Assembly: GCA_040876345.1 (NCBI GenBank)
Contig: JBBDPM010000006.1
Span: 392,547 to 456,546 of the forward strand
Direction: 5' to 3'
DNA length: 64,000 nt
DNA from: Candidatus Woykebacteria bacterium
GTDB taxonomy: Bacteria > Patescibacteriota > Microgenomatia > Woykebacterales > RBG-16-39-9b
Below, one piece after another: positions 12,046-37,809 of this stretch. Numbering within the stretch: the first letter of the stretch is position 1; the number at the start of each line of letters is the position of its first letter. The notes beneath the pieces were generated by a model that saw only the letters and a list, made by a program, of their open reading frames with translations, was not told the DNA's origin and made no database searches. A program made the position numbers and the translations under genes.

Positions 12046-12246
12046 TATGCACCTCCAATGTGCTTTTCCGCTAAACGTTTGTTAGCGCGAATTAGCTATA
12101 AATATAGCATATAATAGCCTAAAAGTCAACACTATAAGACGTTATGTATCTTCAAACCTTCCGCAGCAGCTCGGTTTTCAGGTACTATCACGTCTTGCGT
12201 TAGCCATCTTAATGGCTAACTAAGATCTTTAATTTGTAATTTTTAT

Positions 12247-12486
12247 TTAGGGGTAGATTTGTTTACCTTCTTTATCTTCAAGGAAAATGGCTAGTACGGG
12301 GCAGCTGCGGGCGGCGGCTATTATATCTGCACCCGAATCTTTACCTTTAAACCCAGGCTTTCCTTCGACAAGCTCAGGACTCCGTATCACTGCTTTCAAC
12401 TCATCATCAAGATCAAAAGTGTCTGGTGCGAGCACCACACAAGTTCCCGCCCCGATACATAAATCTCTGTCAATACGTATTTTCAT
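12247..12486 (-). CDS. small single-cluster ferredoxin
   Basis: 79 aa, DRDLCIGAGTC ... CPVLAI; paralog of 2561..2776; downstream of ispH. Confidence 0.65.
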   Translation of the reverse strand: MKIRIDRDLCIGAGTCVVLAPDTFDLDDELKAVIRSPELVEGKPGFKGKDSGADIIAAARSCPVLAIFLEDKEGKQIYP

Positions 12487-23855: not shown

Positions 23856-25808
23856 GTGCAATCCCTGCCAAAGGCGTACCACTTTGTATTGTCAATATTT
23901 CTGCGGGAAATTCCCCACGTTGTTGGGTTTTCCGCCGTTTGTGTGATTTTTCTTTCATCTCTTATCTTTCTTGCCCTACCCGCCAAAGCTTCGCTAACCT
24001 CAGAACAAGTTGAACAAAAATTAAATGAACCAATTTATTTAAACTTTAAGTTCCCAATTAAAAGAGCCTCGGTAAAAGTAGAAGTTTTTCCACCAGTAGA
24101 ATTTGATCATTCCTGGTCTGGGCTTCTAGTCAACCAGAATCTTATTATTAAACCAAAAAACCTACTTCAACCGAACCAAACTTATCAAGTGGTAGTGAAG
24201 GATTCAAAAAACCCAATTGGACTCTCGGCAAAATCTTCTTCATTTTCTTTTAAAACCGAGTCTCTACCCAAAATTGTTGGCTCTTACCCGAAACCAGATG
24301 AAGGGCGTATTAAATCCAATCCAATCTTTTCTTTTACCCTGGATAAAAAAGTAGATTACGGGGACTTTGAACTCATATCCAATCCTCCCATTGAAGTTGA
24401 GCAAAAAAGGCTCGGCGAGAAGGTGGAATTTATTCCAAAGGCAAATCTTTTCCAAGGCAAGAAGTATTTTATTGCTCTCTCTTTCAAAGCGGCCGGTATA
24501 GATGTTACTAATCTTTTTGCCGGTGAATATCTAGTTGTTGAACCTTTGAAGATAGTTAAAACTTCCCCAAAACAAAAAGTAACTAACGCCAGCAAAAAAA
24601 GTGTTGTCTCCATAAAATTTAACAAGGAAGTGAAAACCGTCTTTTTGGGCTCGTTTATAAAACTAAATCCGTCTCAAGAAGGGAGTCTTGAATTTGTTAA
24701 TAAAAAGGAAGTGAAGTTCACCCCAAATCCTCAATTCTTGACTGATACTGAGTACAAGATCACTGTTGATAAAAATCTTGAGGCGGAAGATGGTGGTATG
24801 TTGGAAGAAGACTTCGTCCTTAAGTTCGAAATCGCTGGTCCTGTACAAGTAGTCGGGGCCACTCCCCAAGGTTGGGGAATACCTTTAATTTCGCCAGTCT
24901 CAGTTACATTTGATCAGGTAGTCGATAAAAAATCTGCCCAAGCAAAGTTCTCTGTTCAACCAAAAGTTGCCGGCACTTTTAGTTGGTCGGGCAATACGAT
25001 GACATTCGTACCGAAAAGGGTTCTAAATCTCTTTAAAAATTATGGCTTTAGCTTAAGTATTGGTGTGAAAGGAAACGGAGGGGAACCAAGCAATAAAGTC
25101 TTCAACTTCAATTTTAGAACCACCCTAGAGCGCTCCAGAACTATTGGCTACTCTATTCAAGGTCGGCCGATAAAAGCTTACTATTTTGGTGTTGGTTCCA
25201 AGAAAATCCTTTTAGTTGGGGCAATGCATGGAAGTGAGGCCAATTCTGGCAATCTACTCACTAGCTGGGTAGCGTACCTAAGAGCCAACCAAAACTCAAT
25301 AGCAGAGGGCCGCACCTTTATAGTTGTGCCTCTTGCAAACCCGGACGGTGTCGCCAAAGAAAACCGCTTTAACGCTCGTGGTGTCGATCTAAATAGAAAC
25401 TGGAATACTCCAACCTGGCAAAAAACTACCTACTGGAACGGTGGTCCAGTTACGAATGGGGGCGGGGCAAAACCATTTTCTGAACCAGAGACAAAAGCTC
25501 TAAGAGACTTAATAAACACCGAGAATCCAAAAATTACTCTCTCTTACCACTCTGCCGCTGGGGTAGTAATCAGCGATGGCGTGTCAAACAGCTTAAGAGA
25601 TTGGTATTCGTCCAAAACAGGCTACACCGCTCTTTTAGGGGCTGCCCAATACGATGAGGTCTTCTCTTACGATGTTACTGGATCACTTGAAGAGTGGCTT
25701 GGCGAGAAAAACAAAATCGTGGTCGTGGTTGAACTGGCCTCCCCTTACTCATCAGAATATCTAAGAAACCTCCCCGCCCTAAAAGGGTTGCTAAATTACC
25801 CTTTATAA
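23856..25808 (+). CDS. secreted M14 zinc carboxypeptidase with N-terminal Ig-like domains
   Basis: signal peptide; GAMHGSEANSG (HxxE), PLANPDGVAKENRFNARGVDLNRNW M14 motifs in C-terminal domain. Confidence 0.75.
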   Translation: MQSLPKAYHFVLSIFLREIPHVVGFSAVCVIFLSSLIFLALPAKASLTSEQVEQKLNEPIYLNFKFPIKRASVKVEVFPPVEFDHSWSGLLVNQNLIIKPKNLLQPNQTYQVVVKDSKNPIGLSAKSSSFSFKTESLPKIVGSYPKPDEGRIKSNPIFSFTLDKKVDYGDFELISNPPIEVEQKRLGEKVEFIPKANLFQGKKYFIALSFKAAGIDVTNLFAGEYLVVEPLKIVKTSPKQKVTNASKKSVVSIKFNKEVKTVFLGSFIKLNPSQEGSLEFVNKKEVKFTPNPQFLTDTEYKITVDKNLEAEDGGMLEEDFVLKFEIAGPVQVVGATPQGWGIPLISPVSVTFDQVVDKKSAQAKFSVQPKVAGTFSWSGNTMTFVPKRVLNLFKNYGFSLSIGVKGNGGEPSNKVFNFNFRTTLERSRTIGYSIQGRPIKAYYFGVGSKKILLVGAMHGSEANSGNLLTSWVAYLRANQNSIAEGRTFIVVPLANPDGVAKENRFNARGVDLNRNWNTPTWQKTTYWNGGPVTNGGGAKPFSEPETKALRDLINTENPKITLSYHSAAGVVISDGVSNSLRDWYSSKTGYTALLGAAQYDEVFSYDVTGSLEEWLGEKNKIVVVVELASPYSSEYLRNLPALKGLLNYPL

Positions 25809-25880
25809 AGCTCGTAACAAAGTTCGCTACTAGTCGGTACTAAAACTCAGTTCTTTTAATTTAAAAGAATAAAAACTACA

Positions 25881-27866
25881 ATGAACTCAATGTATAAGAA
25901 AATTTCGGACTATGGTGTGATCGGTAATTGCCGCACGGCAGCTCTAGTTGCAAGCGACGGCTCAATTGATTGGGCCGCTCTTCCCAATTTTGACTCGCCA
26001 GCCTATTTTTGCTCTATTTTAGACTCTAAAAAAGGCGGTTTTTTCAAAATAGCACCAGAAGGGTTTTATAAATCGGACCAAAGCTATATTTACCACACCA
26101 ACATATTGGAGACTTTATTCTTTAATCAGGAAGGAAGCGTTCTCCTTTCTGATTTCATGCCTCTTTCTAGAGACGAGGAGGAGACAAATAGTATACCCGA
26201 GTTTGGTACCAAATTTGTCCGCCGATTGAAGGCTCTCAAGGGCAGTCATAGAATAAACTTAACTTTAAAAATCACTCCTGACTTTGCGAAAGAAAAGGTT
26301 GAAGTGTTTTTTCAAGAAGGTTTAGGGCTCATCGCCGACAATCGAGAAAATACCCTAGTGCTCTGGACCGAGAGAAAACCCAAAATCGAAGATAGGGTTG
26401 TTTACTTAGATTTTGATTTAAAGGAAGGCGAGACGGCTCTTTTTGCCCTTGGTTTTTTTAGAAAGGGTGGTACAATTCCTGCTTTTGGAGAAAGTGAGTT
26501 CCGAAGTCTTTTTAATAAAACAGCCCGCTTTTGGCGCTGGTGGGCCGGAATCTGTCAATACAAGGGGATGTTTTATGAAGAGGTCATTCGTAGCGCCCTT
26601 GTATTAAAGCTTCTAACTTATAATCCCACCGGTGCGGTTGTGGCTTCCCCGACAACTTCGCTGCCAGAAAAGATTGGTGGATTCCTGAACTGGGACTACC
26701 GTTACACATGGCTTAGAGACGCTTCTCTTATAATGTACTCCCTACTAGCCTTGGGGTATCTGAAAGAGGCGAGTGAATTTATGCGCTGGCTTGAAAACGT
26801 GGCGGTAAAAGAGGAGGAGGGTATAAGGATAATGTACGGCATTAATGGCGAAAGGGAGTTAAAGGAAACAGATCTTGATCACCTAGAAGGCTACCTGGGA
26901 TCAAAACCGGTCCGGATTGGCAACGCTGCCTCAAACCAAAAGCAGTTTGATGTTTTTGGAGAGGCTCTTGCGACCATCAATTTATATGTTCAGTGTGGTG
27001 GCAGTCTTTCTCCAAAAATGAAGAGTTTTGTGAAACGGCTGGTAGAGTATTGCGCTCTCCACTGGAAAGAGGCAGATGCTGGAATTTGGGAAGGCAGAGG
27101 CGATTACAAACATCATACTTATTCTAAATTAATGGCTTGGGTAGGCATGGATCGGGGAATAAGAATTGCTAAAAAGCTTGGAATTGATGCCGATTTTGAT
27201 TATTGGCAGGCTGTACGAGACGAGATAAAAGTTGATCTTCTTGAAAATGGTTTTAATAAAAAGCTAGGCGCTTTTGTTGAAAGTTACGGATCGGATATTA
27301 TCGATGCCAGTAATTTAAACATATCATTGGTTGGGTTTCTGGCACCAGATGATCCAACAATGCTTTCAACTCTAGAAAAAACGATGTCTACTCTTACAAA
27401 AGATTGGTTTGTTTTGCGCACCTCAAATGAAAAAGACGAACTTAAAAATGGGGAGGGTGCTTTTTTCCTCACTACTTTTTGGCTAATTGATAACTTGTCT
27501 CTGCTTGGTAGAGTCAAAGAGGCTAAAATTTGGTTGGAAAAGGTACTCCACTTTGCCACTCCTCTTGGTCTCTACGCTGAGGAGTTTGACCCTTACACCA
27601 AAGAACACCTGGGTAACTTCCCCATGGGGTTCACTCATCTTGGTTTAATCAATTCAGTTTTAACACTAGATCAGGTAGCTAATTACGGTCAGCGAACCAA
27701 GGAAACAATACCAGCCGAGAGGTTAGTAAACACTATTGGTCAAGTTCTTCTAACCGGAGGCAAAAGAACTAGAAAAACAGTTGAAGACGTTCTTGAAATA
27801 GTCTTACCTGGACCAATCAAAGGGACACTCCTGAAGGACTCTCGCCGCAAGACAAAAAACAACTAA
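25881..27866 (+). CDS. glycoside hydrolase family 15 (glucoamylase/trehalase-like)
   Basis: YGVIGNCRTAALV..GSIDW N-domain and WDYRYTWLRDAS catalytic-domain signature; 661 aa. Confidence 0.8.
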   Translation: MNSMYKKISDYGVIGNCRTAALVASDGSIDWAALPNFDSPAYFCSILDSKKGGFFKIAPEGFYKSDQSYIYHTNILETLFFNQEGSVLLSDFMPLSRDEEETNSIPEFGTKFVRRLKALKGSHRINLTLKITPDFAKEKVEVFFQEGLGLIADNRENTLVLWTERKPKIEDRVVYLDFDLKEGETALFALGFFRKGGTIPAFGESEFRSLFNKTARFWRWWAGICQYKGMFYEEVIRSALVLKLLTYNPTGAVVASPTTSLPEKIGGFLNWDYRYTWLRDASLIMYSLLALGYLKEASEFMRWLENVAVKEEEGIRIMYGINGERELKETDLDHLEGYLGSKPVRIGNAASNQKQFDVFGEALATINLYVQCGGSLSPKMKSFVKRLVEYCALHWKEADAGIWEGRGDYKHHTYSKLMAWVGMDRGIRIAKKLGIDADFDYWQAVRDEIKVDLLENGFNKKLGAFVESYGSDIIDASNLNISLVGFLAPDDPTMLSTLEKTMSTLTKDWFVLRTSNEKDELKNGEGAFFLTTFWLIDNLSLLGRVKEAKIWLEKVLHFATPLGLYAEEFDPYTKEHLGNFPMGFTHLGLINSVLTLDQVANYGQRTKETIPAERLVNTIGQVLLTGGKRTRKTVEDVLEIVLPGPIKGTLLKDSRRKTKNN

Positions 27867-27898: not shown

Positions 27899-28168
27899 TT
27901 AGGAAACGTCTAGGTGGGTCTTGTACATGAATGAAGCGTCCCCATTGTACTTCGACAGCGATTTCGTCACTTGTTCAAAAATCTCTCTATAGTCAACTTC
28001 ACTTTTATCCTTAAGCCACTGATTAATGTCTTTAGAGACTTTATCAGCGATGCCCTCGGCCTCTTGATCTTTCATGTGAACATTTAGACACGCCGCGTAG
28101 ACACTAGCGTAGACTTTTCGATCGTCATATTCCTGTTTGTGACCTTTGCGTTTAACTATATGAGCCAT
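27899..28168 (-). CDS. ATP-cone domain protein
   Basis: 89 aa; HIVKRKGHKQEYDDRKVYASVYAAC fits ATP-cone (VIKRdG..E.Fd..KI) pattern. Confidence 0.5.
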   Translation of the reverse strand: MAHIVKRKGHKQEYDDRKVYASVYAACLNVHMKDQEAEGIADKVSKDINQWLKDKSEVDYREIFEQVTKSLSKYNGDASFMYKTHLDVS

Positions 28169-28215: not shown

Positions 28216-28926
28216 TTAGCCAAAGTTTATAGTCCCGTTAGCAATCAGAATCAAGAGCCAACCAAGCGCGATTAGGAGTAGTCCAATAAATAGTCTCATG
28301 TAACCGCGAGACTCTTGCTTCCATTTCTTTAATGCTTGAAGTTTCACTCCACTTGCTACCAAAACAAGGATGAAAAGAAGTGGCGCTACAAAAATTATAT
28401 TGTAAAGAACTAGCATTAAGAAAGCTGCAAAATTAAAGTTAAGTGAAAGTATTGTAATGATTGCAAGATAAGGTGCGCCCGTACAAGGAAGCTCTACTCC
28501 AGCAACAAAGGCGCCCAGTAGAAGAACCCCCGGGATAGTAGTGTTACGGGCAAACCGATTGATTTTATCAACAAAAGCTAACGGTATGTGAAGCGATAAG
28601 CCCTGGCCGTACCAAAAAAAGTCTTTCACTTCTATAAGACCGGCAACGATGATGAAGGAGCCAACTATTATGGATAAATATTCGGTGACAAAAAGTGGAA
28701 CTGAAGCAAGAAAGTAAATAAGTCCAAGTCCGGCGGTAAGATAAGTGACAAATACTGCAAATACGTATAAGCTTCCAAGGAAAAGCATGCGGCGAACAGT
28801 ACCTCCCCCGGATAGAACCACTGAAACCATTAAAATCAGCACCCCGATAGCGCAGGGATTAATACTATCTATTGCCGCGCTTCCAACGACCACTCCTAAG
28901 GTGGGTAAATGTGCCTCAATTCCCAT
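28216..28926 (-). CDS. ccdA: CcdA/DsbD-family thiol-disulfide transmembrane electron transporter
   Basis: multi-TM; SINPCAIGVL and ELPCTGAPY paired-Cys motifs. Confidence 0.8.
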   Translation of the reverse strand: MGIEAHLPTLGVVVGSAAIDSINPCAIGVLILMVSVVLSGGGTVRRMLFLGSLYVFAVFVTYLTAGLGLIYFLASVPLFVTEYLSIIVGSFIIVAGLIEVKDFFWYGQGLSLHIPLAFVDKINRFARNTTIPGVLLLGAFVAGVELPCTGAPYLAIITILSLNFNFAAFLMLVLYNIIFVAPLLFILVLVASGVKLQALKKWKQESRGYMRLFIGLLLIALGWLLILIANGTINFG

Positions 28927-29737
28927 ATAAATTCCCTTTCAAGACTTGGAGCTTGTATTGCTCACAGAGCTTTTCAGTTTTTTCTTTATCTTCTGAGCCA
29001 AATTCGACAATTATACAATCTCCTGGTGGAATTCTTCCGTGAGGAGAGAGAACGTATGAGCCTGGATCGTCAAGTTTTTTCTGAGTAAATATTTTGCCTT
29101 CTGTCTGATCCACAAATACTTGCAAACTTCCGGGGATGCCATCTGGACAAAGATCTCCATTTTGCCGCGATACAACGCCAGAGTTGGTGGGGACTTCAAG
29201 ACTCGTACTTGTTAATTGACCGCCGACAACCTGGAAAAACTTACCCAGACTGGCATCTTTCTGGTCTATAATAACTCCTTCCAGATGAATCCAACCATCA
29301 TTATGTTCGTGCAGGGCAGCTGTTCCGACTTTATTCGAAAAGCCCTTGGGGTCAATAATATCTAATTTTTTACCACAATCCCAAATCTCAAATTGAGCGT
29401 GCCAATGCACTGGTCCACCACTACTGCTTGCTAAGTTTAAACGCACCGTAGAGCCAGCTAAAAATACTGAGGCTAAAAGGGTTGGCACTACAATTCCTAC
29501 AAAAAGAATTTTTTTGAGGAGGCCGCTGGCATTTTTAAACAAAAAAGTCAGAACAACAAAAATAGTTATTAGTGCCGAGGCTACCAATACAACTTTTATT
29601 GAATTTGCCCGAGTTGCATCTTCCAGAGTTGAGGAGGCATCAGCTGAAGTTAAACCATAGGCAGCGGAGACTTTCGTAGGGAGGAAAAAAAATAGGCTAA
29701 GTAATACGGTTATTAATCTAGGCAGTTTTCTTAACAC
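28916..29737 (-). CDS. membrane-anchored periplasmic hypothetical protein with His motifs (HWHAQFEIWDCG, LHEHNDGWIH)
   Basis: 273 aa; N-terminal TM segments, several Cys/His clusters; adjacent to ccdA. Confidence 0.4.
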   Translation of the reverse strand: MLRKLPRLITVLLSLFFFLPTKVSAAYGLTSADASSTLEDATRANSIKVVLVASALITIFVVLTFLFKNASGLLKKILFVGIVVPTLLASVFLAGSTVRLNLASSSGGPVHWHAQFEIWDCGKKLDIIDPKGFSNKVGTAALHEHNDGWIHLEGVIIDQKDASLGKFFQVVGGQLTSTSLEVPTNSGVVSRQNGDLCPDGIPGSLQVFVDQTEGKIFTQKKLDDPGSYVLSPHGRIPPGDCIIVEFGSEDKEKTEKLCEQYKLQVLKGNLYGN

Positions 29738-29771
29738 CTTATTAAATTTATACCATAAAATATTTTATTAA

Positions 29772-29804
29772 GGTAGACCCCAAGCTTAAAGCTTGGGGTC
29801 TACC
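29772..29804. terminator. bidirectional Rho-independent terminator (perfect 15-bp palindrome)
   Basis: GGTAGACCCCAAGCTT-AA-AGCTTGGGGTCTACC flanked by A/T runs on both strands, between 28916..29737 and 29832..30473. Confidence 0.7.
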
Positions 29805-29831
29805 ATTTTAGCACTGATTAGTCTTAGGTTC

Positions 29832-30473
29832 TTATATTGATGTCTTGTTCTTTCTTAAACTTAAGACCAAGGCAGCTACTGCGACCACCAAAGCTGCGTA
29901 TGCAGACCAGGTGGTGAGCCGATCAGTACCGGGATTCTCGGTTTTGCTCTCCTGACCAGAAAGATCATCGACAACTTTAGTTGTCGAGTACGGCCCTAAA
30001 CCCTTCTTTTCCATTTCTTCTTGCTCTTCTTCACTCAAGTTTTCTTTGGGCTCCTGATCCCAAGACACCACCGTGCCGTCGGAATAAGTTTGGTAGGCTT
30101 TCCAGAGTAAATTGGCTTTTTCACCGGGAGCTTGGGCGCTGAAGAGAAACTCATCCCTTTGCCCCTCTGGTATTAACCCGCCTGTCCAATTTATCTCGAC
30201 CTCTTTAGCTTCTTCCCCCTTACCCTCTTTTTTTATCGCTATCTTCCATCCAGGCTTTACATTAGGAATCACGCTATCAAGACCCTCTGGTATAACAAGC
30301 CTCAGGGCTACAGTTGGTATTTCCATTTCATTGGGAACGCTAACCGTAAATACTTGACGAGCGGCGAGGCCAACCTCATCCGGTTTTACAACTACATGAG
30401 CGAACACACTTGTTGCGGCTAATCCAAGCATTATCGGTAAGAGAGCTAAACTAATGAATAACTTATTTCTCAT
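29832..30473 (-). CDS. YcnI-like (DUF1775) secreted copper-binding-type protein, C-terminal TM anchor
   Basis: signal peptide ending VFA then mature N-terminus HVVVKP (His1), acidic linker, C-terminal hydrophobic anchor; family call moderate. Confidence 0.5.
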   Translation of the reverse strand: MRNKLFISLALLPIMLGLAATSVFAHVVVKPDEVGLAARQVFTVSVPNEMEIPTVALRLVIPEGLDSVIPNVKPGWKIAIKKEGKGEEAKEVEINWTGGLIPEGQRDEFLFSAQAPGEKANLLWKAYQTYSDGTVVSWDQEPKENLSEEEQEEMEKKGLGPYSTTKVVDDLSGQESKTENPGTDRLTTWSAYAALVVAVAALVLSLRKNKTSI

Positions 30474-30523
30474 AAGAAAACTCCTTTCAATAAGAAATAC
30501 GCTTAAATAATAAAGACTGATGA

Positions 30524-31357
30524 TTAAGCCGCGTCGGGAGGGGATTTATTGTCGATTGATCTAAATTTTGATAGTGAAGGACTCTCATGTTCAATTTCTA
30601 ACAACAGCCCAGCCACATCGACAAAAGACTCCACACCAAGGGGCGTTATCGGTACAATCGGTTGCGCCATACAGCAGGGATGTTCTGACGAGTGTGATTG
30701 CTGGGTATCATGATTTTCATGATGACGGAACAATAAGAAACCTGATGGTAAAGCCTGATGTAGAACGAATGTGGCTATGATAATTAACAACCAAAATTTT
30801 GGGTTAGTTGATTTTTCACTTACTGACTCCTTAGATTTCCTCTTCAATCTAAAAATGAAAGAGAAGGTAGCTACGGCAGCTATAATTAACCCAATTGTCA
30901 TATAAAGTCCGCTAGAGTCTCCCTTAGAATCTGATGAATTTCCCAAACGCTCTCTAGATACCCTTAGATCGTAAGTGATATTAAAAGGCTGAAAAGCGTC
31001 TGGCTCCTTAGGAGTTCCTTTTAGGACTAGTGTGTAGACCGCTTTTTCTCGAAAGGTAAAGGAAAAACTTTCTGAGGTAAGACCAGTTTCTTGAATAAGC
31101 GGGGCGGAAAATATTTCTTTTCTGCTTCGTAAAATACTTACAGCACAACTGCAGTTTGAGGAATTGAATTTTCCGCTTTTATCTTTTATTTCAAAATAAA
31201 AGTCAGCCACTTCCCCCACATAGGGATCATCATCCGGATTTATATGAATAACCGCCCCGATTGAACCATCTGTTTTTAAGATGTGAGCCTCAACTGGGGA
31301 GGCCCCTAAGCTTAGTATCGATATGACCAGCAACGGGATAAGAAGAAGCTTTCTCAT
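30524..31357 (-). CDS. secreted membrane-anchored protein with mature N-terminal His, CxC and C-terminal His-rich (HHENHDTQQSHSSEHPCC) tail
   Basis: start taken at MRKLLLIPLLV; signal peptide ...PVEA then HILK; TM then His/Cys-rich tail. Confidence 0.4.
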   Translation of the reverse strand: MRKLLLIPLLVISILSLGASPVEAHILKTDGSIGAVIHINPDDDPYVGEVADFYFEIKDKSGKFNSSNCSCAVSILRSRKEIFSAPLIQETGLTSESFSFTFREKAVYTLVLKGTPKEPDAFQPFNITYDLRVSRERLGNSSDSKGDSSGLYMTIGLIIAAVATFSFIFRLKRKSKESVSEKSTNPKFWLLIIIATFVLHQALPSGFLLFRHHENHDTQQSHSSEHPCCMAQPIVPITPLGVESFVDVAGLLLEIEHESPSLSKFRSIDNKSPPDAA

Positions 31358-31364
31358 AGATAAT

Positions 31365-32921
31365 CTATTCAACTTTGACGGTAAAATAGGCAACAAATAG
31401 TTTGCCATTGTGATTAAACTGGGCAAACGCTCTGTAGACTCCAGCCTTAAAAGGCCCATAAATACCAATCGGTAAAAATTCGACAGTTGGTCCACCAGAG
31501 GCGTCCTTTACCGGCGGCGTCAAATTGTAAGGGTGGACGTGTAAATAATCGTAATTATCCTGTTTTATCATTACGAGATGCCCAAAGGCGTTTAAGTAGG
31601 GCTTTAAGTTGGTTACTGGCTCTTTGGTATTAGCATCTTTAATAGTAAAGCTGATTTTTTGTTTTCCCAAAGACATATCCGCTGCTTTTAACGGGGCGCC
31701 CGTAGATAACTCTACTTCATAATCACCAAAAATCTTAACTGGGTGGTGGTCGACAGGCTGGCTAGCTTTTACCTCTTTCTTTTCGCCAACTTGTAAGCTG
31801 AAAGCGATCTGCTGCTCAATTCCTCCGAAAGGCTGAAAGTTAGCGTAAAGACGGTAGGTTGAATCGTGGGGGAAGGAAGTAGTGATTACAAATTCGGCTC
31901 CTTTCTGCACTGGATGAATATGATCAAAGTAAGCTAACTCTCCATCCACAATAATTAAATGGAAAGTTTTTTCCCAGGGAGCTTTGAAAAGCGACACGGG
32001 AGAACCGCTGCTAGCATCAAAAACTTTAAACCTTAGGGTAGTTTTTTGTTTTGGTAAAATGCCCTCTTGATGATCAAAATTTACAGTATAACGCTTTGTT
32101 TTGTCTCCATCTAAACCTGGTGAATTGTTTGTGGTGGTGGAAGGGGCGGTTCCCTTTTGAGCCTCTTCGGCAAGCTTAATGTGTTGGGAGTGAATACCTA
32201 TCGACGTTGTGCCTTCATGTGGTGGCTTAAGATAAAAGCTTGCGTAAGTTATTAAACCTACTACCAACGCTAAGCTTAAACCTACTTTGGGCAGCCAAAG
32301 AAACTTCTCGGCTAAAAACCGGTCAAATCTTATTGCCTCCAAAATTAAAAGGACCGAAAGGGCCACGAAAAATATCTTTGGGATAGATGCCGACAAATCA
32401 ATAAAGTGGGTGCCAAGCATTAAGGCGTGAATTCCAATTAAGGTCGCCGCAATATATACCAATCGATGCAGCATCTTCCAACGTCTTCCAAGTTTCTGAA
32501 CCGCCCAATTAAATGAAGTAGCGGCCATAGAAGACAAGATCAGTAAAGCGATGAAACTGAGGCTGATTGCTTTTAAATAAGCGTTGCTAAGAAACCCAAG
32601 CCCTGAAAAGCCACCTAAAAGCCACCAAAAAGCTATTTGAGAGTGGAGCAGAGCAAAAAAGAAAGCCGAAACACCAATCCCCCTTCTGGCCACTAAATGA
32701 AGGGATTTAGTGGGTAGTCTGGGAAAAAGCTTGTATAAAGGGCTGGCTATTAGCGCCAAGTACAAATAAGTTACCGCTGTCAGAGCGTATATTTGGGCCA
32801 GTCTAATTTTTTGAAGATCGGCAGATTCTATATTCGTTTTTACGAATAAATAGATCAAGAGGGCTACCGCTGCACTAGTTATTAAAATTATTTTTCTTAT
32901 GTTCTTAATTAAAAAAATCAT
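31365..32921 (-). CDS. MsrQ/YedZ-like ferric-reductase-type heme b membrane domain fused to periplasmic His-motif domain
   Basis: N-domain LHLVARRGIGVSAFFFALLHS and LGRRWKMLHRLVYIAATLIGIH (MsrQ His pairs); C-domain with FDHIHPV and YLHVHPYN motifs; 518 aa. Confidence 0.55.
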   Translation of the reverse strand: MIFLIKNIRKIILITSAAVALLIYLFVKTNIESADLQKIRLAQIYALTAVTYLYLALIASPLYKLFPRLPTKSLHLVARRGIGVSAFFFALLHSQIAFWWLLGGFSGLGFLSNAYLKAISLSFIALLILSSMAATSFNWAVQKLGRRWKMLHRLVYIAATLIGIHALMLGTHFIDLSASIPKIFFVALSVLLILEAIRFDRFLAEKFLWLPKVGLSLALVVGLITYASFYLKPPHEGTTSIGIHSQHIKLAEEAQKGTAPSTTTNNSPGLDGDKTKRYTVNFDHQEGILPKQKTTLRFKVFDASSGSPVSLFKAPWEKTFHLIIVDGELAYFDHIHPVQKGAEFVITTSFPHDSTYRLYANFQPFGGIEQQIAFSLQVGEKKEVKASQPVDHHPVKIFGDYEVELSTGAPLKAADMSLGKQKISFTIKDANTKEPVTNLKPYLNAFGHLVMIKQDNYDYLHVHPYNLTPPVKDASGGPTVEFLPIGIYGPFKAGVYRAFAQFNHNGKLFVAYFTVKVE

Positions 32922-33802
32922 CTCTTTACCCGGCTTAAATAAATACTCAAACCAACAGAGCCCAGAACGAAGACTACTATTATATATAGTAAAGGTGACT
33001 TAGTTACATCTTTAGAACCAGCTGATTCTGTAACAACTGGAACTTTACCACCCACCGTACTAATATCAACAAATTTTAACGTTTCTCCTTCTCTGTCTAC
33101 CCTTACTCCAGTATGATCAATCAGTCCATTCTTATCCTTAACTTGAAGAAGAATAAAGCTTGTTGAAAACTCATCCGCGGTAAAGGAGCGCTGGGCGATT
33201 CTACCTTTTACATACTTATTCTCCCCCAAAAACCACTCCTCAGAATCTAGAGATGTGGAAGAATCGCTCCTAGACTGGCTCACAAATTTAATCTGCTTTC
33301 CCACCTTAAATTCTCCCTGCAGCAAGGCTATTTTTGCCTCCGGCATCTTATATTCTCTTGAGGCAACTACATCTATCTGCACACTATCCAAAAGGGTAAA
33401 CTCCGGAGAATCTGGAGATTTAGCCTCGATTGTGGTTAGGTAAGACCCAATTTTTTCATAAAGATGACTTTGATCAATACCATAGGAAAAGTCTTTTGTG
33501 TCGTCCCCCCACTTCCAGCGAAAGGTTGAGTTTTCGATTATCTCCTTAGGGGCCGAGAATTGTTTTGTGTCGATTAGAAACTGGATTGTCTCGTTAACTA
33601 AATACTTATCCGCTGCGTTGTCCCAGGAAATACCAGGTTTAAAAATAGAGTCCCCTAGATAATAAAGGTTAGTCTGGGCATACTTACCGTTTATTAAAAG
33701 GAAGGGTGGACCAGCGCCATGGGCCGACACAGGAACGGGTAAAAACATTGTCGTGATAATAGCTAATAAAATCAGAGAAACCAAAAAGCTCTTAAACATC
33801 AC
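32918..33802 (-). CDS. secreted hypothetical protein, mature N-terminal His, C-terminal TM anchor
   Basis: signal peptide ...PVSA then HGAGPP; C-terminal LLYIIVVFVLGSVGLSIYL anchor. Confidence 0.4.
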   Translation of the reverse strand: MMFKSFLVSLILLAIITTMFLPVPVSAHGAGPPFLLINGKYAQTNLYYLGDSIFKPGISWDNAADKYLVNETIQFLIDTKQFSAPKEIIENSTFRWKWGDDTKDFSYGIDQSHLYEKIGSYLTTIEAKSPDSPEFTLLDSVQIDVVASREYKMPEAKIALLQGEFKVGKQIKFVSQSRSDSSTSLDSEEWFLGENKYVKGRIAQRSFTADEFSTSFILLQVKDKNGLIDHTGVRVDREGETLKFVDISTVGGKVPVVTESAGSKDVTKSPLLYIIVVFVLGSVGLSIYLSRVKR

Positions 33803-33875: not shown

Positions 33876-36602
33876 CTAAGTTTTTGGTGCTGGAACACTG
33901 TTAGTAGCCTTGTCTAGGAAGCCGTCGAAAAATCTAAACACAACGTAGAGCGCAAGACCCACGACGACGATGTATCCCCAGTCGAACATGTCTATCGGGG
34001 AGAGTTCGAACCAGTTTGCAAAGAGGGGTACATAAACTATCAGTAGTTGGAGCAAAACAGCGGCCGCTATAGATATTGGTAGGAGCAGATTTGCTGTCCA
34101 AGGAATATTATAGTCGCTGCGAATGTTTACAAGTCTTATCAGTTCAAAAATAACTATTGAGATAAAAGCCACCGCCCGCGCCTCGCCAAGGCTTTCGGAA
34201 AGATTTATGTAAAAACCTAGTAAGACGGCTCCCGCCAGAATGAATCCAAAAAAAACAATCTCAAACCAAACTCTTTTGTTCATTATCTGTTCTTGGTATT
34301 TCCTTGGGGAATAGCGAAATATCCCTTTTTCAGCAGGATCAAGTCCTAGGGCTACTGCCGGAATACCATCGGTAACAATGTTTATCCACAAAAGCATCAC
34401 GGCTGTCAATATTACGTCTTGGAATAAAATTAGAGCCAGGAAGACCACGATAACTTCACCGACATTACAGGAAAGCAGGTAGTCTACAAATTTACGGATA
34501 TTGTCGAATATGCCTCTGCCTTCTTCAATGGCCGAAATTATCGTTCCGAATTTATCATCCAGAAGGACCATGTCAGAAGCTTCCTTAGCTACATCAGTAC
34601 CCGTGATACCCATCGCGATACCAATGTCAGCTTTCTTCAGAGCTGGAGCATCGTTTACACCGTCTCCAGTCATAGCTACAAGGTGCCCGTGCTTCTTCAA
34701 CCCTTCCACAATTTTGTATTTATGTTCCGGGTTTACCCTGGCGTAGATGTTTATCTTCTCGACTTTACTGCTAAACTCCTCATCGGAGAGCTTTTCAAGA
34801 TCAGCCCCAGAAATTGCCTCGCCTTTTATGCCAATCTCGGCAGCAACTGCTTTGGCGGTGTCCAGATGATCTCCAGTGATCATTACCACACTAATTCCGC
34901 TTTCGGTTGCTTGCTCTATCAATCCTCTAATATCTTCTCTTGGTGGATCCATCATTGCCTGCATTCCAACGAAGACTAGATCCTCCTCGACTTTTTCAGG
35001 ATCAGCCTTAGCTATCTTTTTGTAAGCAAATCCCAGCACCCTTAGAGCCTTGGCCGCCATTTTCCCGTTTTCCTGCAGAAACTTCTTTTTAGACTCCTCG
35101 GTCAAATCCGCTTCAGACCCATCTTTAATGAACTTTGAGCATTTGGAAAGTACGATTTCCGGAGCCCCTTTTGTGTAAACGAAAAGATCGCCATTTTCTT
35201 TTGAAACTACGCTCATCATCTTTCTCTCTGAGCTGAAAGGGACTTCGTTGACCCTCTCCCCAACTGATTTAAGACCGGCCTTGGAGGCCGAAACAATCAA
35301 AGCTGCCTCGGTTGGATCTCCTAGCACTTTCCCATCTTGCAGATGGGCATTGTTACAGGAAAGCCCACATTTGAGAATCATCTCAATTTCCTTAGGATTC
35401 GCTGGCGCACCGCCCTTTTCAAATTTACCTTCTATATCATAGCCTCGGCCGCTAACGCTGTAGCTCGCCCCGTCAAAATATATCTCTCTCACGGTCATCT
35501 CACCCTTGGTTAGAGTTCCGGTCTTATCTGCACAAATCACGTCCACGCTTCCGAGAGTCTCCACGCTGGTCAGTTTTCTCACCAAAGCATTTTTCTTCAA
35601 CATTCTCTGCGTGCCAAAGGCCAAGGATATGGTAACTACCGCTGGCAACCCTTCCGGAATTGCGGCTACTGCCAGAGCAACCGCGGCAATAAATGAATGG
35701 AGGACTCTCTGAAGCAGGCTAAGATGGGCAAAGTCTTTGGCAAAAAAGACAATAAATACAAAAACTACGGTGCTAACCGCTAGAGTCCCATACCCCAAAA
35801 TCTTCCCCAGTTTATCAAGCCTTTTTTGAATCGGAGTCTCTTCGTCTTCAGTTTCGGCAACTGAAGTGGCAATCTTACCAATCTCAGTCGAGTCTCCAGT
35901 AGCTACCACAATTCCTCTGCCCCGACCGCTGGTTATAGAAGTGCCCGAGAAAACCATATTTTTTTGATCGGCGATTTGTAAATCGCCTTCGAGGCTGTCG
36001 GCGATTTTATTAACGGGTGTGGACTCCCCAGTTAGAGAAGCTTCGTTTGTTTGAAGACTAGCTAACTCAATTATCCTTATATCGGCGGGAACTTTTTCAC
36101 CCTCTTCTAAAACAACCAAGTCTCCCGGAACAAGCTCGCTGGTGTCTATTTCCTTGGTTACCCCTTCCCTTATCACCTTTGCCTTAAAGGCTAATAGCTT
36201 TTTCAAAGCTTCAATCGCTTTTTCCGCTCTGTATTCTTGAAAAAAGCCTAAAACGGCTATCATAATAACGATGGCGAGAATTAGCCCCGCCTCAATTAAA
36301 TCCGATTGATCCCTACCGCCGAAAAAATAAACAAGTAGCGTCATAGCTGCGGAAGCCAGTAAGATAATCGTTAGAAGGTTTTTAAACTGGTCGACTAGAA
36401 TAACCAGCGGGGAGATTCTTTTCGCCTCAGTTAGTTTGTTGGGGCCGTATTTTTCAAGACGAGCTTTTACTTCTGCTAAGCTTAAACCCTTTTCACTCGA
36501 ATCCAGATTTTTTAATACTTCTTCTTTTGAAAGTAAATAGACGTGCTTTTCGGAGGTTTGCGACATTAATTTAAGCATAATCAAATTAATTTCACTATGC
36601 AA
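33876..36602 (-). CDS. P2-type cation-transporting ATPase (Ca2+/Mn2+ pump family)
   Basis: TGES, CADKTGTLT phosphorylation site, AIPEGLPAV TM4 motif, TGDHLDTA, GDGVNDAPALKKADIGIAMG; ~908 aa. Confidence 0.9.
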   Translation of the reverse strand: MHSEINLIMLKLMSQTSEKHVYLLSKEEVLKNLDSSEKGLSLAEVKARLEKYGPNKLTEAKRISPLVILVDQFKNLLTIILLASAAMTLLVYFFGGRDQSDLIEAGLILAIVIMIAVLGFFQEYRAEKAIEALKKLLAFKAKVIREGVTKEIDTSELVPGDLVVLEEGEKVPADIRIIELASLQTNEASLTGESTPVNKIADSLEGDLQIADQKNMVFSGTSITSGRGRGIVVATGDSTEIGKIATSVAETEDEETPIQKRLDKLGKILGYGTLAVSTVVFVFIVFFAKDFAHLSLLQRVLHSFIAAVALAVAAIPEGLPAVVTISLAFGTQRMLKKNALVRKLTSVETLGSVDVICADKTGTLTKGEMTVREIYFDGASYSVSGRGYDIEGKFEKGGAPANPKEIEMILKCGLSCNNAHLQDGKVLGDPTEAALIVSASKAGLKSVGERVNEVPFSSERKMMSVVSKENGDLFVYTKGAPEIVLSKCSKFIKDGSEADLTEESKKKFLQENGKMAAKALRVLGFAYKKIAKADPEKVEEDLVFVGMQAMMDPPREDIRGLIEQATESGISVVMITGDHLDTAKAVAAEIGIKGEAISGADLEKLSDEEFSSKVEKINIYARVNPEHKYKIVEGLKKHGHLVAMTGDGVNDAPALKKADIGIAMGITGTDVAKEASDMVLLDDKFGTIISAIEEGRGIFDNIRKFVDYLLSCNVGEVIVVFLALILFQDVILTAVMLLWINIVTDGIPAVALGLDPAEKGIFRYSPRKYQEQIMNKRVWFEIVFFGFILAGAVLLGFYINLSESLGEARAVAFISIVIFELIRLVNIRSDYNIPWTANLLLPISIAAAVLLQLLIVYVPLFANWFELSPIDMFDWGYIVVVGLALYVVFRFFDGFLDKATNSVPAPKT

Positions 36603-36646
36603 TAAGAATTGACAACAACTCTCCTTCCAGGTAAAATTAATTTGTT

Positions 36647-36838
36647 ATGGGGCTTTTTGGCGGTGATGACAAAAAGGAAGAAGTAAAAACTTGTCCCAAC
36701 TGTGGTAAGGAATTAAAACCTGGTGAGGGTATCCGAAAAGAAAACGGCCATTTTTGTTGTGACAAATGCTGCGAGGTGGGACCAAGGATTGAGGAAAAGA
36801 AGAAACAAGGTAAACCTCTTACTTGCGAGTTTTGCTAA
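36647..36838 (+). CDS. TRASH/YHS-like Cys-rich metal-binding mini-protein
   Basis: 63 aa, CPNCGKELKPGEGIRKENGHFCCDKCCE fits C..CG...nG..FCs..C pattern; divergent from P-type ATPase. Confidence 0.45.
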   Translation: MGLFGGDDKKEEVKTCPNCGKELKPGEGIRKENGHFCCDKCCEVGPRIEEKKKQGKPLTCEFC

Positions 36839-37134
36839 TACCTCGTAAAAAACTTCCCGATAATTTCCTTGCTTGAAATGTATCCAAAGCTACGGCTGTC
36901 TTGACTGTCCTCTTGATTAAGACCAACTACGTAGTAGCTTTTATCTAAGATTTTTTTCACTTTTTTGAGGGCTATCTTTCCCTTATCGTGGCGGTCGCGA
37001 AAAGCAATAATATCGCCTATCGTAGGATCGGAAAAAATGTACGCCCAACGATTTATTATAATGCGCTGGCCAGAATAAAAATCTGGCTCCATACTGTGGC
37101 CGACTATTTTGAAGCGCTCTAAGGGAAACCGCAT
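36835..37134 (-). CDS. sodX: SodX-like S26 (signal-peptidase-I-type) maturation protease for Ni-SOD
   Basis: GHSMEP catalytic Ser box and VVGLNQEDSQDSRSFGYI box E; immediately downstream of sodN with 1-nt overlap. Confidence 0.65.
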   Translation of the reverse strand: MRFPLERFKIVGHSMEPDFYSGQRIIINRWAYIFSDPTIGDIIAFRDRHDKGKIALKKVKKILDKSYYVVGLNQEDSQDSRSFGYISSKEIIGKFFTRY

Positions 37135-37628
37135 TACCCTTTTGTGGGAAGAACTATCTCACCACCTGATGGATAGTTAGAAGGGGCTTTAGTAGGTTTA
37201 ACTCCCTTAGTCTCCCAGAAAATTTCGGTAAAGTCTTGCACTTTAGCTAATAATTGCTCCGAGGCTTCTGGGTTAATTTCTTGGCGAACCTTTGAAGAGA
37301 GTTTCATTATTTCGAAAACCAGAGAGTGTAATTTAGGATATCTCTCAAGGTGTTCTGGCTTGAAATAGTCGCCCCAAATAACCCTAACTTCTTTCTTTAC
37401 TAGTTCAGCGTGTTCTTCTTTGACAAGTGTGTAGCGAGCAAGTTTGTGCTCTCTATCTTTACTATCTTCATCTGGCAACTCGTTGATAAGAGCAGTCATT
37501 CGAATAACGGTGTGGGCGGCTACTTGAGCTAAGTGTGGGTCATAAATTCCACAAGGAATATCGCAATGGGCATAAATAGTTTTTGGTGTGGAAATCTTAT
37601 CGATCGCTCTTAGCAAAACCTTAATCAT
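37134..37628 (-). CDS. sodN: nickel superoxide dismutase precursor (Ni-SOD)
   Basis: 20-aa leader then HCDIPCGIYDP Ni-hook (His-Cys-x-x-Pro-Cys-Gly-x-Tyr); 164 aa. Confidence 0.85.
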   Translation of the reverse strand: MIKVLLRAIDKISTPKTIYAHCDIPCGIYDPHLAQVAAHTVIRMTALINELPDEDSKDREHKLARYTLVKEEHAELVKKEVRVIWGDYFKPEHLERYPKLHSLVFEIMKLSSKVRQEINPEASEQLLAKVQDFTEIFWETKGVKPTKAPSNYPSGGEIVLPTKG

Positions 37629-37734: not shown

Positions 37735-37809
37735 TCCCCGGTAGCTCAATGGTAGAGCGCGCGACTGTTAATCGCTAGGTTGTAGGTTCGAGTCCTACCC
37801 GGGGAGCCA
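37735..37809 (+). tRNA. tRNA-Asn (anticodon GTT)
   Basis: 7-bp acceptor TCCCCGG/CCGGGGA, D and T arms (GTAGG-TTCGAGT-CCTAC), anticodon loop cTGTTaa, 3' CCA encoded. Confidence 0.85.

Follow-up and report, generated by a model that had tools for sequence, protein, structure and literature searches.

Gene content of the locus

The window (the whole stretch of DNA analysed, 64,000 nucleotides) carries six minus-strand ORFs, g1 to g6, between positions 28216 and 33802, with -11 to 94 nt between neighbours. An ORF check agrees with the original prediction on both the six consecutive genes and their coordinates. The start of g4 was set at 31357 (MRKLLL), although the longest ORF extends to 31495, because this start yields a signal peptide and no overlap with g5. 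The features of the locus are as follows.

27899..28168, minus: stand-alone ATP-cone protein (Pfam ATP-cone, 5e-9)
28216-28926, minus: g1, CcdA-like six-TM protein (Pfam SfLAP/GAP, PF11139, 39.7 bits, cut-off 35)
28916-29737, minus: g2, signal peptide, two-TM hairpin and 165-aa extracytoplasmic beta domain
29832-30473, minus: g3, YcnI/DUF1775 protein, Cu(II)-binding by homology, with C-terminal TM anchor (Pfam DUF1775, 2.6e-22)
30524-31357, minus: g4, in two parts
30803..31357, minus: g4 core, residues 1-185, with signal peptide, Ig-like domain from His25 and TM anchor
30527..30802, minus: g4 tail, residues 186-277, with second TM helix and extracytoplasmic His-rich HPCC...NKSPP segment
31365-32921, minus: g5, in three parts
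32304..32921, minus: g5 residues 1-206, six-TM MsrQ/STEAP-type ferric reductase domain (FRD)
32229..32285, minus: g5 residues 213-231, extra seventh TM helix, cytoplasm to outside (AF2 helix 215-231)
31368..32120, minus: g5 residues 268-518, two tandem YtkA/CopC-like beta-sandwich domains
32918-33802, minus: g6, exported, C-terminally TM-anchored, two PKD-like repeats (weak Pfam PKD_4)
33876..36602, minus: P-type IIA (Ca2+/PMR1-SERCA-like) ATPase (NCBIfam PMR1-type 1e-210 and SERCA-type 4e-200, both scores just under their cut-offs)
36835-37134, minus: SodX-type S26 maturation peptidase (Pfam Peptidase_S26, 1e-18)
37134-37628, minus: nickel superoxide dismutase, Ni-hook HCDIPCGIYDP (Pfam Sod_Ni, 6e-46)

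Two conserved modules

Judged by conservation of gene order, the g1–g6 region is composed of two separate conserved modules, B (g6-g5-g4-g3) and A (g2-g1). The g2 to g1 order is kept in 54 of 54 metagenome loci; the P-type IIA ATPase adjoins g2 in 27 of 38, usually upstream of the pair, and the ATP-cone gene, the third conserved gene of module A, lies downstream of g1 in 22 of 30. In the window, module B separates the ATPase from g2-g1. The single co-conserved system first proposed does not withstand this comparison: both modules occur together in only one of the 18 module-A loci that reach at least 12 kb, and among 32 module-B loci g2 and g1 are found only in L007 (L007/L109, where one contig has both modules within 10 kb). 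By this distribution, module A (P-type IIA ATPase, g2, g1 and ATP-cone protein) appears as a unit separate from module B, with a link here that is positional only.

Within module A, g2 matched no Pfam family and its whole model gave no PDB fold match. Its invariant residues are H111, H113, C121, H143, E144, H145, D147, H151, E153, C197, C241 and C258, so that the HWH and HEH clusters picked out originally (H111, H113, H143, E144, H145) do fall on invariant columns in its homologues. Homologues of g1 (mean identity 82%) share the invariant motifs DSINPC in TM1 and ELPC in TM4, with both Cys invariant, and are labelled "cytochrome c biogenesis protein CcdA" by JGI versus "GAP family" by NCBI. 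The identification of g1 as CcdA holds in architecture, namely six TM helices (3+3) with an invariant Pro-Cys motif in TM1 and TM4 as in CcdA/DsbD, but not as membership of the DsbD family, SfLAP/GAP being its sole Pfam match. It differs further in that its invariant partner is g2 (five His, four Cys) in place of a thioredoxin-fold protein, and in the tight linkage of the pair to the genes of an ATP-cone protein and a P-ATPase of Ca type. Probably g1 is a thiol-disulfide transporter that keeps the cysteines of the novel His/Cys-rich g2 reduced.

In module B, the FRD gene is followed immediately by g4 in all 32 related CPR loci; YcnI (DUF1775) is present in 24 and a g6-type PKD protein in about 11. 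Among FRD loci at a greater distance, 44 in all (L043-L086) and for the most part outside the CPR, none carries g3 or g4, and roughly six of the close CPR FRDs have neither gene beside them. In Saccharibacteria and Parcubacteria the FRD is short, lacking the C-terminal module, and is still accompanied by g4 and YcnI; this trio is therefore the core. Cu-type P1B ATPases lie about 5 kb or less from module B in L008 and L021. Genes for other metals also occur nearby: ZIP, Fur and NiSOD (four of 32 loci each), Nramp, and HupE/UreJ, which sits inside the module in L001; sodN-sodX adjoins DUF1775 in L002/L003. The oxidative-stress genes NiSOD and MsrA recur close to module B.

Proteins of module B

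The N-terminal domain of g5 shares 33% identity with MsrQ, and none of the MsrQ cofactor residues is missing from it: it has equivalents of the heme ligands H91/H164 and of the FMN-pocket residues R77, R78, S135, W147 and H151. It scores below the NCBIfam MsrQ equivalog cut-off, and the top structural matches of g5 are the metalloreductases STEAP4 and STEAP1. MsrQ-type FRDs are of the single heme b plus flavin (FMN) type (PMC12525009). By homology, the g5 FRD is thus predicted to carry one heme b and FMN instead of two hemes; the fusion of an MsrQ-type domain to a periplasmic domain stands as originally described, but its di-heme character falls. A K/R-rich loop (195-212) precedes the AF2 helix 215-231, the seventh TM helix, whose orientation is fixed by homology to MsrQ.

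Each of the two beta-sandwich domains beyond this helix contains an invariant H-x12-H-x-H (H321/H334/H336 and H448/H461/H463). The FDHIHPV and YLHVHPYN motifs singled out at first sight are accordingly real features, with H334, H336, H461 and H463 all invariant columns. The YtkA match is weak in the window's own sequence (Pfam, E 0.07). Elsewhere the same double domain occurs in fusions: an extra TM helix connects it to a CopA-type ATPase that has a CPC motif and HMA, and other fusions join it to cupredoxin domains and HMBD domains; all six His are invariant across these fusions, and every fusion partner found elsewhere is copper-related.

Three further proteins of the module are exported with a predicted N-terminal histidine. 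The predicted junctions VFA/HVVVKP, VEA/HILKTD and VSA/HGAGPP are all present in the translated ORFs, and the Ala-His junction is kept in 24 of 24 aligned homologues of g4, 25 of 25 of g3 and 10 of 11 of g6; it is therefore no chance feature of one genome. The alignment of g3 to Bacillus subtilis YcnI (7ME6; 9.5e-17) begins exactly at His26, and E49 and W138 match Glu50 and Trp137. The Cu(II) ligands of YcnI are a His/Glu/Trp triad (PMC8424229), kept in at least 85% of 25 CPR g3 homologues; g3, taken originally to be YcnI/DUF1775-like, is a genuine YcnI with the complete triad. In g6 the predicted mature N-terminus is His28 (VSA/HGAGPPF), the N and C halves are related to each other (hhalign 92%), and the TM anchor spans 271-289. 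In P0478 and P0500 a g6 homologue forms the N-terminal part of a single protein with a g5 homologue and still has its His1.

The g4 core has the invariant residues H25, H38, P41, D43, P45, D59 and Y108, giving an invariant His1/His14 in mature numbering. It belongs to no Pfam family and has weak Ig-like matches only, and it is distantly related to domain 1 of g5 (hhalign 57%, E 1e-4). Pfam does not place g4 in the CopC family. The topology of the tail was read from a loop with seven K/R at 170-189. The tail was thought to end the protein in the His/Cys stretch HHENHDTQQSHSSEHPCC, but 47 residues come after it. The tail is fused to the core only in the window and L021; its counterpart is a separate small ORF in L001 and L026, as it probably is in L017. 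HHENHDTQQSHSSEHPCC is part of this small TM protein, joined to g4 by a lineage-specific fusion.

A proposed copper relay

These data support, at the level of sequence, an FRD tied both physically and by synteny to extracytoplasmic His-rich proteins that include a true YcnI. From this linkage and the copper-related fusion partners, a cupric reductase or copper relay is therefore the best available reading of module B, as had been suggested for the six genes together, to which it does not extend. The best reading of module B is a ycn-like copper relay with an FRD reductase in place of CopCD. For the locus as a whole, we see about an even chance that two modules are juxtaposed, B being a surface copper relay with its own transmembrane reductase and A a separate unit. 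The analysis itself shows which domains are present, that their cofactor and ligand residues are conserved, and the topology, gene order and fusions of genes and domains. That the metal is copper, which way the electrons and the copper move, what donates the electrons and what becomes of the Cu(I) are parts that we infer.

The MsrQ-type flavocytochrome domain of g5 would accept electrons from the cytoplasm, where the donor, if MsrQ is a guide, would be an NAD(P)H:flavin reductase working via the bound FMN; quinones are, to our knowledge, generally absent from CPR bacteria. Electrons would cross through the single outer heme b to the outside. There Cu(II) would be held by the membrane-tethered YcnI (mono-His brace), g4 (His1/His14/Asp) and g6 (His1), and also by the two 3-His YtkA-like domains of g5, which the extra TM helix would set directly above the heme domain. 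Reduction of Cu(II) to Cu(I) would free the metal or pass it on, either to be taken up or to be loaded into extracytoplasmic cuproproteins. Against copper, 3-His sites and an N-terminal His can accommodate Ni, Zn or Fe as well, the genes beside module B in some loci hint at other metals, and we know of few cuproenzymes in CPR bacteria that would call for a dedicated system. No copper-responsive regulator or operator was found for module B, and the operon has neither CopD nor any other recognised copper importer.

The system is distinct from MsrPQ and YcnJ, as originally predicted, with MsrP and CopD absent and the FRD fused to a metal-binding module. Like YcnKJI of B. subtilis (YcnI plus YcnJ, a CopC-CopD-YtkA protein), module B is organised as an operon and has a TM-anchored YcnI with a His/Glu/Trp Cu(II) site, extracytoplasmic YtkA-type domains on a polytopic membrane protein, and an additional Ig-like Cu(II)-type domain with N-terminal His (CopC in YcnJ, g4 here). 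It differs in lacking a CopC family member, the CopD channel and the YcnK regulator, in having an MsrQ-type FRD flavocytochrome as membrane partner and two YtkA-like domains with H-x12-HxH sites, and in its extra PKD protein with His1. YcnJ has "no known reductases" associated with it (PMC13344008).

Since g5 keeps the heme ligands and FMN-pocket residues of MsrQ, it probably shares the same electron path from cytoplasm to outside; unlike E. coli MsrPQ, it has no MsrP (molybdoenzyme) partner, adds TM7 and a fused extracytoplasmic metal-binding module, and would have protein-bound copper as acceptor instead of a molybdoenzyme. Reduction of both cupric and ferric ions is established for the FRD relatives yeast Fre1/Fre7 and the STEAPs (PMC3591440). 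Unlike these eukaryotic proteins, g5 carries no NAD(P)H dehydrogenase domain fused on its cytoplasmic side, and module B, which is bacterial and CPR-specific, fuses or tethers substrate-presenting domains and partners on the outside. CcoG of Rhodobacter capsulatus is the sole established dedicated bacterial cupric reductase cited (PMC13344008). Membrane-bound reduction of Cu(II) to Cu(I) in a copper-trafficking pathway would be common to both, but CcoG, a 4Fe-4S protein, works from the cytoplasmic side in cbb3 oxidase assembly, and g5 is unrelated to it in sequence, cofactors and topology.

Alternative explanations

Reductive iron acquisition, in which the FRD turns extracellular Fe(III) into Fe(II) for entry through unlinked ZIP, Nramp or Feo transporters and the Ig-like His-rich proteins act as P19/FtrA-like, copper-assisted or direct iron handlers, is unlikely. 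The FRD/STEAP family consists mainly of ferric reductases (PMC3591440), and ZIP, Nramp and Fur genes do recur beside module B, yet ZIP and Fur do so in only the few loci counted above; Ftr1/EfeU permease is absent, similarity to P19 is at the generic Ig-fold level and below that to CrdA, and both YcnI, a Cu(II) protein with its ligand triad fully kept, and the CopA/HMA, cupredoxin and HMBD fusions of the double domain speak for copper.

Somewhat more doubtful is a single six-gene system, with g1 and g2 cooperating with the FRD module, for example by using thiols to maintain copper ligands or Cu(I) acceptors in the reduced state. DsbD/CcdA-type proteins are tied to copper systems elsewhere (ycnL beside ycnKJI in B. 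subtilis; Scs systems), and both the tight same-strand arrangement in the window and the shared contig of L007/L109 fit this idea. It is opposed by the constant pairing of g2 with g1, in company with the ATPase and ATP-cone genes, by the rarity of joint loci from either side, and by the appearance of module B as an insertion between the ATPase and g2.

Surface redox catalysis is improbable. Here the FRD would supply electrons to copper sites of g4, g6 or the 3-His domains that work as enzymes, for instance by attacking envelope polymers of the host or of the cell itself through LPMO-like oxidation, or by clearing superoxide or peroxide at the cell surface. In favour are the attachment of CPR bacteria to host cells, the N-terminal His of three tethered proteins, kept over large distances, and the recurrence of NiSOD and MsrA nearby; some His-brace proteins are oxygenases that depend on electrons from an outside donor (PMC10952591). 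However, no LPMO-family homology was detected, the YcnI and YtkA/CtaK proteins of B. subtilis are chaperone-type and non-catalytic, the second His of g4 lies just 13 residues past His1, unlike known braces, and generic PKD repeats aside there is no evident substrate-binding domain.

Nickel supply, with the His1 proteins taking up Ni(II) for import and maturation of the adjacent NiSOD, is very improbable: an N-terminal amine plus His can bind Ni(II), sodN-sodX lies directly upstream in the window and adjoins DUF1775 in L002/L003, and L001 has HupE/UreJ within the module, but uptake of Ni(II) requires no redox step, yet the module's invariant core is the FRD; only four of 32 loci have NiSOD close to module B, and the double-domain fusions have copper-type partners.

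For the copper relay that we prefer, the linkage of an FRD to YcnI-type and His1 surface proteins points to a copper-reducing step not previously identified in bacterial copper uptake.

Two conserved modules in one gene run

The six minus-strand genes under study (g1 to g6) belong to a run in which neighbouring genes, from a P-type ATPase gene to an ATP-cone gene, are spaced by -11 to 94 nt (gaps or overlaps). All six ORFs, and every motif quoted for them in the original prediction, are found in the window. Proteins identical to those encoded here are on record from a Candidatus Woykebacteria MAG, which places the source among the CPR/Patescibacteria, in the Microgenomates group.

Genes of the region in minus-strand order
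37134-37628, minus strand, sodN
36835-37134, minus strand, sodX
33876-36602, minus strand, P-type IIA ATPase
32918-33802, minus strand, g6, exported protein with PKD-like repeats
31365-32921, minus strand, g5, ferric-reductase domain (FRD) with probable YtkA-like domains
30524-31357, minus strand, g4, exported Ig-like protein
29832-30473, minus strand, g3, YcnI
28916-29737, minus strand, g2, membrane hairpin with beta domain
28216-28926, minus strand, g1, six-helix membrane protein
27899-28168, minus strand, stand-alone ATP-cone gene, 89 aa

The six genes had been read as a single unit, which should then be conserved together. They are not: module B (g6-g5-g4-g3) occurs in only 1 of the 18 loci of at least 12 kb that carry module A (the ATPase, g2, g1 and the ATP-cone gene). 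Neighbourhood conservation does hold within each module taken singly. The gene for g4 lies immediately downstream of the FRD gene in all 32 of 32 non-redundant loci with an FRD of the type found in the Candidate Phyla Radiation (CPR), and g2 is followed by g1 in 54/54 loci with enough sequence (module A was sampled in 80 metagenome loci). In the window, then, module B separates the ATPase from g2 in a module A that is otherwise contiguous. A single integrated six-gene system has some support and is rated lower than the copper relay proposed below for module B. A promoter and terminator scan of the window leaves the transcription units unseparated, and the regions upstream of module B in 31 loci show no enrichment of a cop-box, a Fur-box, a CsoR-box or any shared 8-mer.

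Several other features of the region were recorded. Directly upstream of the ATPase, 36835-37628 (minus strand) encodes a nickel superoxide dismutase (NiSOD) with the Ni-hook HCDIPCGIYDP and a SodX-type S26 maturation peptidase; such a pair adjoins DUF1775 in two homologous loci (L002/L003). The best promoter-like site of the region (36609-36637, 11/12 matches) precedes a 63-aa Cys-rich ORF at 36647-36838 (plus strand), CPNCG-x17-HFCCDKCC...CEFC, with TRASH-like Cys spacing and zf-FCS as its sole, weak Pfam match (E 4.5); the small product may bind metal or act as a regulator. An M14 carboxypeptidase with Big domains and a GH15/GDE_C-like glycoside hydrolase (23856-27866, plus strand) flank the cluster, and since the same genes flank module B in L002/L003 (L002 4968-6917 and 11428-12480), synteny reaches past module B. 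The window holds five tRNA genes (62290-62559, plus strand; 59466-59552, minus strand; 37735-37806, plus strand), three of them tightly clustered at 62.3-62.6 kb, and no other Rfam family.

An MsrQ-type membrane domain in g5

The N-terminal part of g5 matches PF01794 (Ferric_reduct) at 32.9 bits (cut-off 28) and E. coli MsrQ by BLASTP with 33% identity across 123 residues (E 7e-10), and the AlphaFold2 model of the protein has a mean pLDDT of 86.6. A PDB sequence search with g5 gave no useful match. Residues R79-R80, H93, S136, W148, H152 and H165 align to MsrQ R77-R78, H91, S135, W147, H151 and H164, and these cofactor-site positions are invariant or nearly so in 62 homologues. In the MsrQ/STEAP signature a conserved Arg replaces the first canonical heme His, leaving three His, and the result is a single outer heme b (H91/H164) with a cytoplasm-side flavin pocket (R77, R78, H151) (PMC3591440, PMC12525009). 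By residue alignment, then, the g5 N-terminus is a member of the MsrQ/YedZ-STEAP subgroup of the FRD superfamily, predicted to hold one outer heme b and a flavin pocket. The original call of an MsrQ/YedZ-type di-heme b domain thus stands as to type and falls as to the second heme. Nor is g5 MsrQ proper: it scores 54.7 bits against an NCBIfam MsrQ equivalog cut-off of 130 and has no MsrP partner, and no MsrP-type molybdoenzyme or molybdopterin oxidoreductase is listed in the annotated neighbourhoods. CPR bacteria are generally without quinones.

The window encodes a second, stand-alone MsrQ-type FRD (47485-48210, plus strand; Ferric_reduct match 3.8e-11), which begins 4 nt after a membrane fatty-acid desaturase gene (46446-47480, plus strand) and has a homologue in L009 (16944-17645). 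The desaturase-FRD pair suggests that FRD proteins are general electron-supply modules in this organism.

A tandem YtkA-like module at the C-terminus of g5

After the sixth TM helix g5 continues with a K/R-rich loop (195-212), a seventh TM helix (213-231), a disordered linker and two beta-sandwich domains (278-378 and 395-517), which would lie outside the cell in the MsrQ orientation. The two are duplicates of one another (hhalign 97%), and both carry an invariant H-x12-H-x-H (H321/H334/H336 and H448/H461/H463). The window protein itself is under the Pfam cut-off for YtkA (PF13115, E 0.07). A search of 1.84 billion representative proteins finds the double domain in 2719 clusters, and among 56 distant members the Pfam families are YtkA in 14 (E<=1e-3, best 9.3e-9), Ferric_reduct in 11, HMBD in 10, Cupredoxin_1 in 3 and PKD in 2. 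One of the 56 (P0470) is an HMA-bearing P1B ATPase whose HMA domain contains CxxC and which shows the Cu(I)-pump motif CPC; its double domain comes after an additional TM helix and therefore sits where exported Cu(I) emerges. The six His are invariant in all these fusions. B. subtilis YcnJ has a YtkA domain as its extracytoplasmic domain, and so does CtaK, a chaperone of CuA assembly (PMC13344008, PMC9145763). The g5 C-terminus classes with the YtkA-like/CopC-like E-set domains, as an extracytoplasmic Ig-like beta-sandwich of copper-chaperone type, and we read it as a tandem YtkA-like domain that most probably binds copper. In a PDB search the double-domain profile matched polyubiquitin alone, and these matches are spurious, as they sum weak repeats with a per-stretch E of about 70.

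YcnI and the N-terminal histidine proteins

The original prediction singled out three exported proteins with a histidine as predicted mature N-terminus (His1), one of them YcnI/DUF1775-like, and both points are borne out. In g3, g4 and g6 the junction V-x-A|H comes after an n-region and an h-region of typical form; it fits the -3/-1 rule of signal peptidase I, and all three proteins lack a lipobox. The Ala-His junction is retained in 25/25, 24/24 and 10/11 homologues respectively, from very different CPR lineages. The predicted cleavage before His1 is based on this rule and this conservation and, for g3, additionally on where its alignment to PDB entry 7ME6 starts.

The YcnI-like protein is g3. 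It matches PF07987 (DUF1775) at 80.2 bits (cut-off 25, E 2.6e-22) and 7ME6, the crystallised mature B. subtilis YcnI, at 9.5e-17, with the alignment starting exactly at H26. The BsYcnI mono-histidine-brace Cu(II) site uses His27 and Glu50 as ligands and Trp137 as a cap (PMC8424229); H26, E49 and W138 of g3 align with these, and each is kept in at least 85% of 25 CPR homologues. Its topology (signal peptide 5-23, TM helix 186-204, then RKNK) places the domain outside, and the C-terminal TM anchor is shared with BsYcnI. We conclude that g3 is a genuine YcnI with a predicted Cu(II) site.

In g4 a signal peptide leads into an Ig-like domain, which a TM anchor tethers. H25 (its His1), H38, P41, D43, P45, D59 and Y108 are invariant, so that g4 has a second invariant His in addition to the one at AxA|H. 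Comparison by hhalign shows a distant relationship of g4 to g5 domain 1 (57%, E 1e-4). None of 24 family members belongs to a Pfam family, weak generic Ig-like matches apart, and CopC (PF04234) is unmatched at E<=1 in all 24. The PKD-type protein g6 combines two PKD-like repeats with a TM anchor and would begin, once processed, with H-G-x-G-P-P-F; its second His (H113) is kept in 60-85% of homologues. PDB sequence searches returned no relative or useful match for g4 or g6.

The His/Cys-rich tail of g4 had been taken as part of the protein. It lies in an added segment comprising a TM helix and then HPCC...NKSPP, with the HPCC part outside the cell by topology. Some Microgenomates encode this small TM protein, with its His-rich segment, HPCC and C-terminal NKSPP, between g4 and g3. 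Fusion to g4 is confined to the window (30527-30802, minus strand) and L021 (about 12215-12406); in L026 (12171-12536) and L001 (11112-11477), probably also in L017, the protein has an ORF of its own. The tail is accordingly a lineage-specific fusion and not an integral part of g4.

The core and the surroundings of module B

DUF1775 follows in 24 of the 32 CPR-type FRD loci, several of the remaining contigs ending early, and a g6-type PKD protein occurs in about 11. Saccharibacteria, Parcubacteria and relatives have a short FRD of 200-260 aa that lacks the YtkA module, yet g4 and YcnI come after it here too, and FRD, g4 and YcnI are therefore the core. Southlakia epibionticum and Nanosynbacter lyticus are two Saccharibacteria with this trio. 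In P0478 and P0500 (L024), g6 and g5 are joined in one polypeptide that retains the signal-peptide|His junction. The 44 FRD loci L043-L086, which are more distant and mostly from outside CPR, have neither g3 nor g4, and about six closely related CPR FRDs occur singly, with no g4/g3 partners. In L025, an ORF that looks CsoR/RcnR-like by eye (12004-12309) is found at a distance of 1.4 kb from a short, stand-alone CPR FRD without g4/YcnI.

Other neighbours of module B vary: ABC exporters (9 loci), ZIP (4 loci), Fur (4 loci), NiSOD (4/32 loci), MsrA (4 loci) and DsbA/DsbB (3-4 loci), with Nramp, HupE/UreJ, cupredoxins and, in L008 and L021, Cu-type P1B ATPases as further cases. A protein of about 106 aa that starts M.CYNCGC..PDD adjoins module B in three loci: L021 (13138-13458) and, ahead of the FRD gene, L008 and L010. 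It has no Pfam or NCBIfam family and may be a cytoplasmic metal-binding protein.

Module A

The ATPase, g2, g1 and ATP-cone genes are a second, strictly conserved CPR module. Across loci L104-L166, which the conserved-partner observation covers, a P-IIA (Ca/PMR1-type) ATPase is adjacent in 27/38 loci and an ATP-cone gene follows g1 in 22/30.

On record g1 is named 'GAP family' (NCBI) or 'CcdA' (JGI). Its six TM helices in a 3+3 layout, with redox Cys in TM1 and TM4 each after a Pro, are the CcdA hallmark, and DSINPC25 (TM1) and ELPC148 (TM4) are invariant in 25 sequences (mean identity 82%). Its Pfam match, however, is SfLAP (PF11139) only; DsbD (PF02683) is precomputed for just 2/120 homologues, and the partner g2 has no Trx match in Pfam. 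The original naming as CcdA thus agrees with architecture and motifs and not with the Pfam family.

The model of g2 (pLDDT 91.4) combines a cleavable signal peptide and a hairpin of two TM helices with a domain on the outside that is mainly beta in predicted secondary structure; five His and four Cys of this domain are invariant, as are Glu/Asp residues. Against Pfam its members give no family (TM noise or generic Ig matches, no Trx match), and a whole-model PDB fold search gave no match and nothing informative on the beta domain. PDB sequence searches with g1 and g2 were likewise of no use.

In 5/30 loci these genes are followed by one for a class-I flavoprotein disulfide reductase, to which no specificity can be assigned, as it falls below every NCBIfam cut-off (LipDH, MerA, RclA-like). 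In the window, 11 kb away, a reductase of this class (16284-17645, minus strand) passes the NCBIfam dihydrolipoyl dehydrogenase cut-off (430 vs 408.8 bits) and is 38% identical to the g1-adjacent reductase of other genomes.

A proposed copper relay

Module B best fits a ycn-like copper relay with an FRD reductase in place of CopC-CopD. The tethered N-terminal-His proteins (YcnI, g4, g6) would capture Cu(II), which electrons passing through the FMN and heme b of g5 would reduce; in Microgenomates the 3-His YtkA-like domains above the heme probably aid this step, and the Cu(I) would then be handed on. Unlike ycnKJI-type operons, module B has no adjacent CopC-CopD importer gene: CopC and CopD Pfam families (as in a YcnJ-like importer) are absent from the window genes and the annotated neighbourhoods. 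We infer copper as the metal, and likewise the electron donor and the outcome (uptake, cuproprotein loading or detoxification).

Three rival readings, namely iron uptake by reduction, redox catalysis at the surface and nickel supply for NiSOD, each have some support, and each is rated below the copper relay. A further reading, which we consider a long shot, makes the FRD a membrane power supply for surface copper enzymes of episymbiotic cells: cytoplasmic electrons would drive His-brace/3-His centres on g4, g6 and the YtkA-like domains for O2-/H2O2-dependent chemistry (LPMO-like attack on host envelope polymers or extracellular ROS detoxification). If true, it would be a bacterial, membrane-built counterpart of the fungal CDH-LPMO pairing. 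LPMO Pfam families are unmatched by g4 or g6.

Significance

Database entries for the proteins already exist, under the names 'ferric reductase-like transmembrane domain-containing protein', 'GAP family protein' or 'hypothetical protein', and the single domains are known as well. In the open-access literature we found no paper linking an FRD to YcnI or on copper handling in CPR bacteria, and no description of the FRD-YtkA fusion, of the double 3-His domain as a family, or of the g4 or g2 families. The double YtkA-like 3-His domain defined by the analysis is widespread, with about 2700 representative clusters, and has copper proteins as its sole fusion partners. Two protein families missing from Pfam, g4 and g2, are identified as well.

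On the Cu(II) reduction step in bacterial copper acquisition, a 2026 B. subtilis study states that no reductase is known for YcnJ/YcnI and that it is not known whether an enzyme catalyses the reduction (PMC13344008). Hundreds of CPR genomes, those of the genetically tractable Saccharibacteria among them, tie a YcnI system firmly to a transmembrane flavocytochrome. Such strict conservation in minimal genomes implies physiological importance. This pairing offers a specific candidate, open to test, for a cupric reductase that works outside the cytoplasm and is dedicated to the task.
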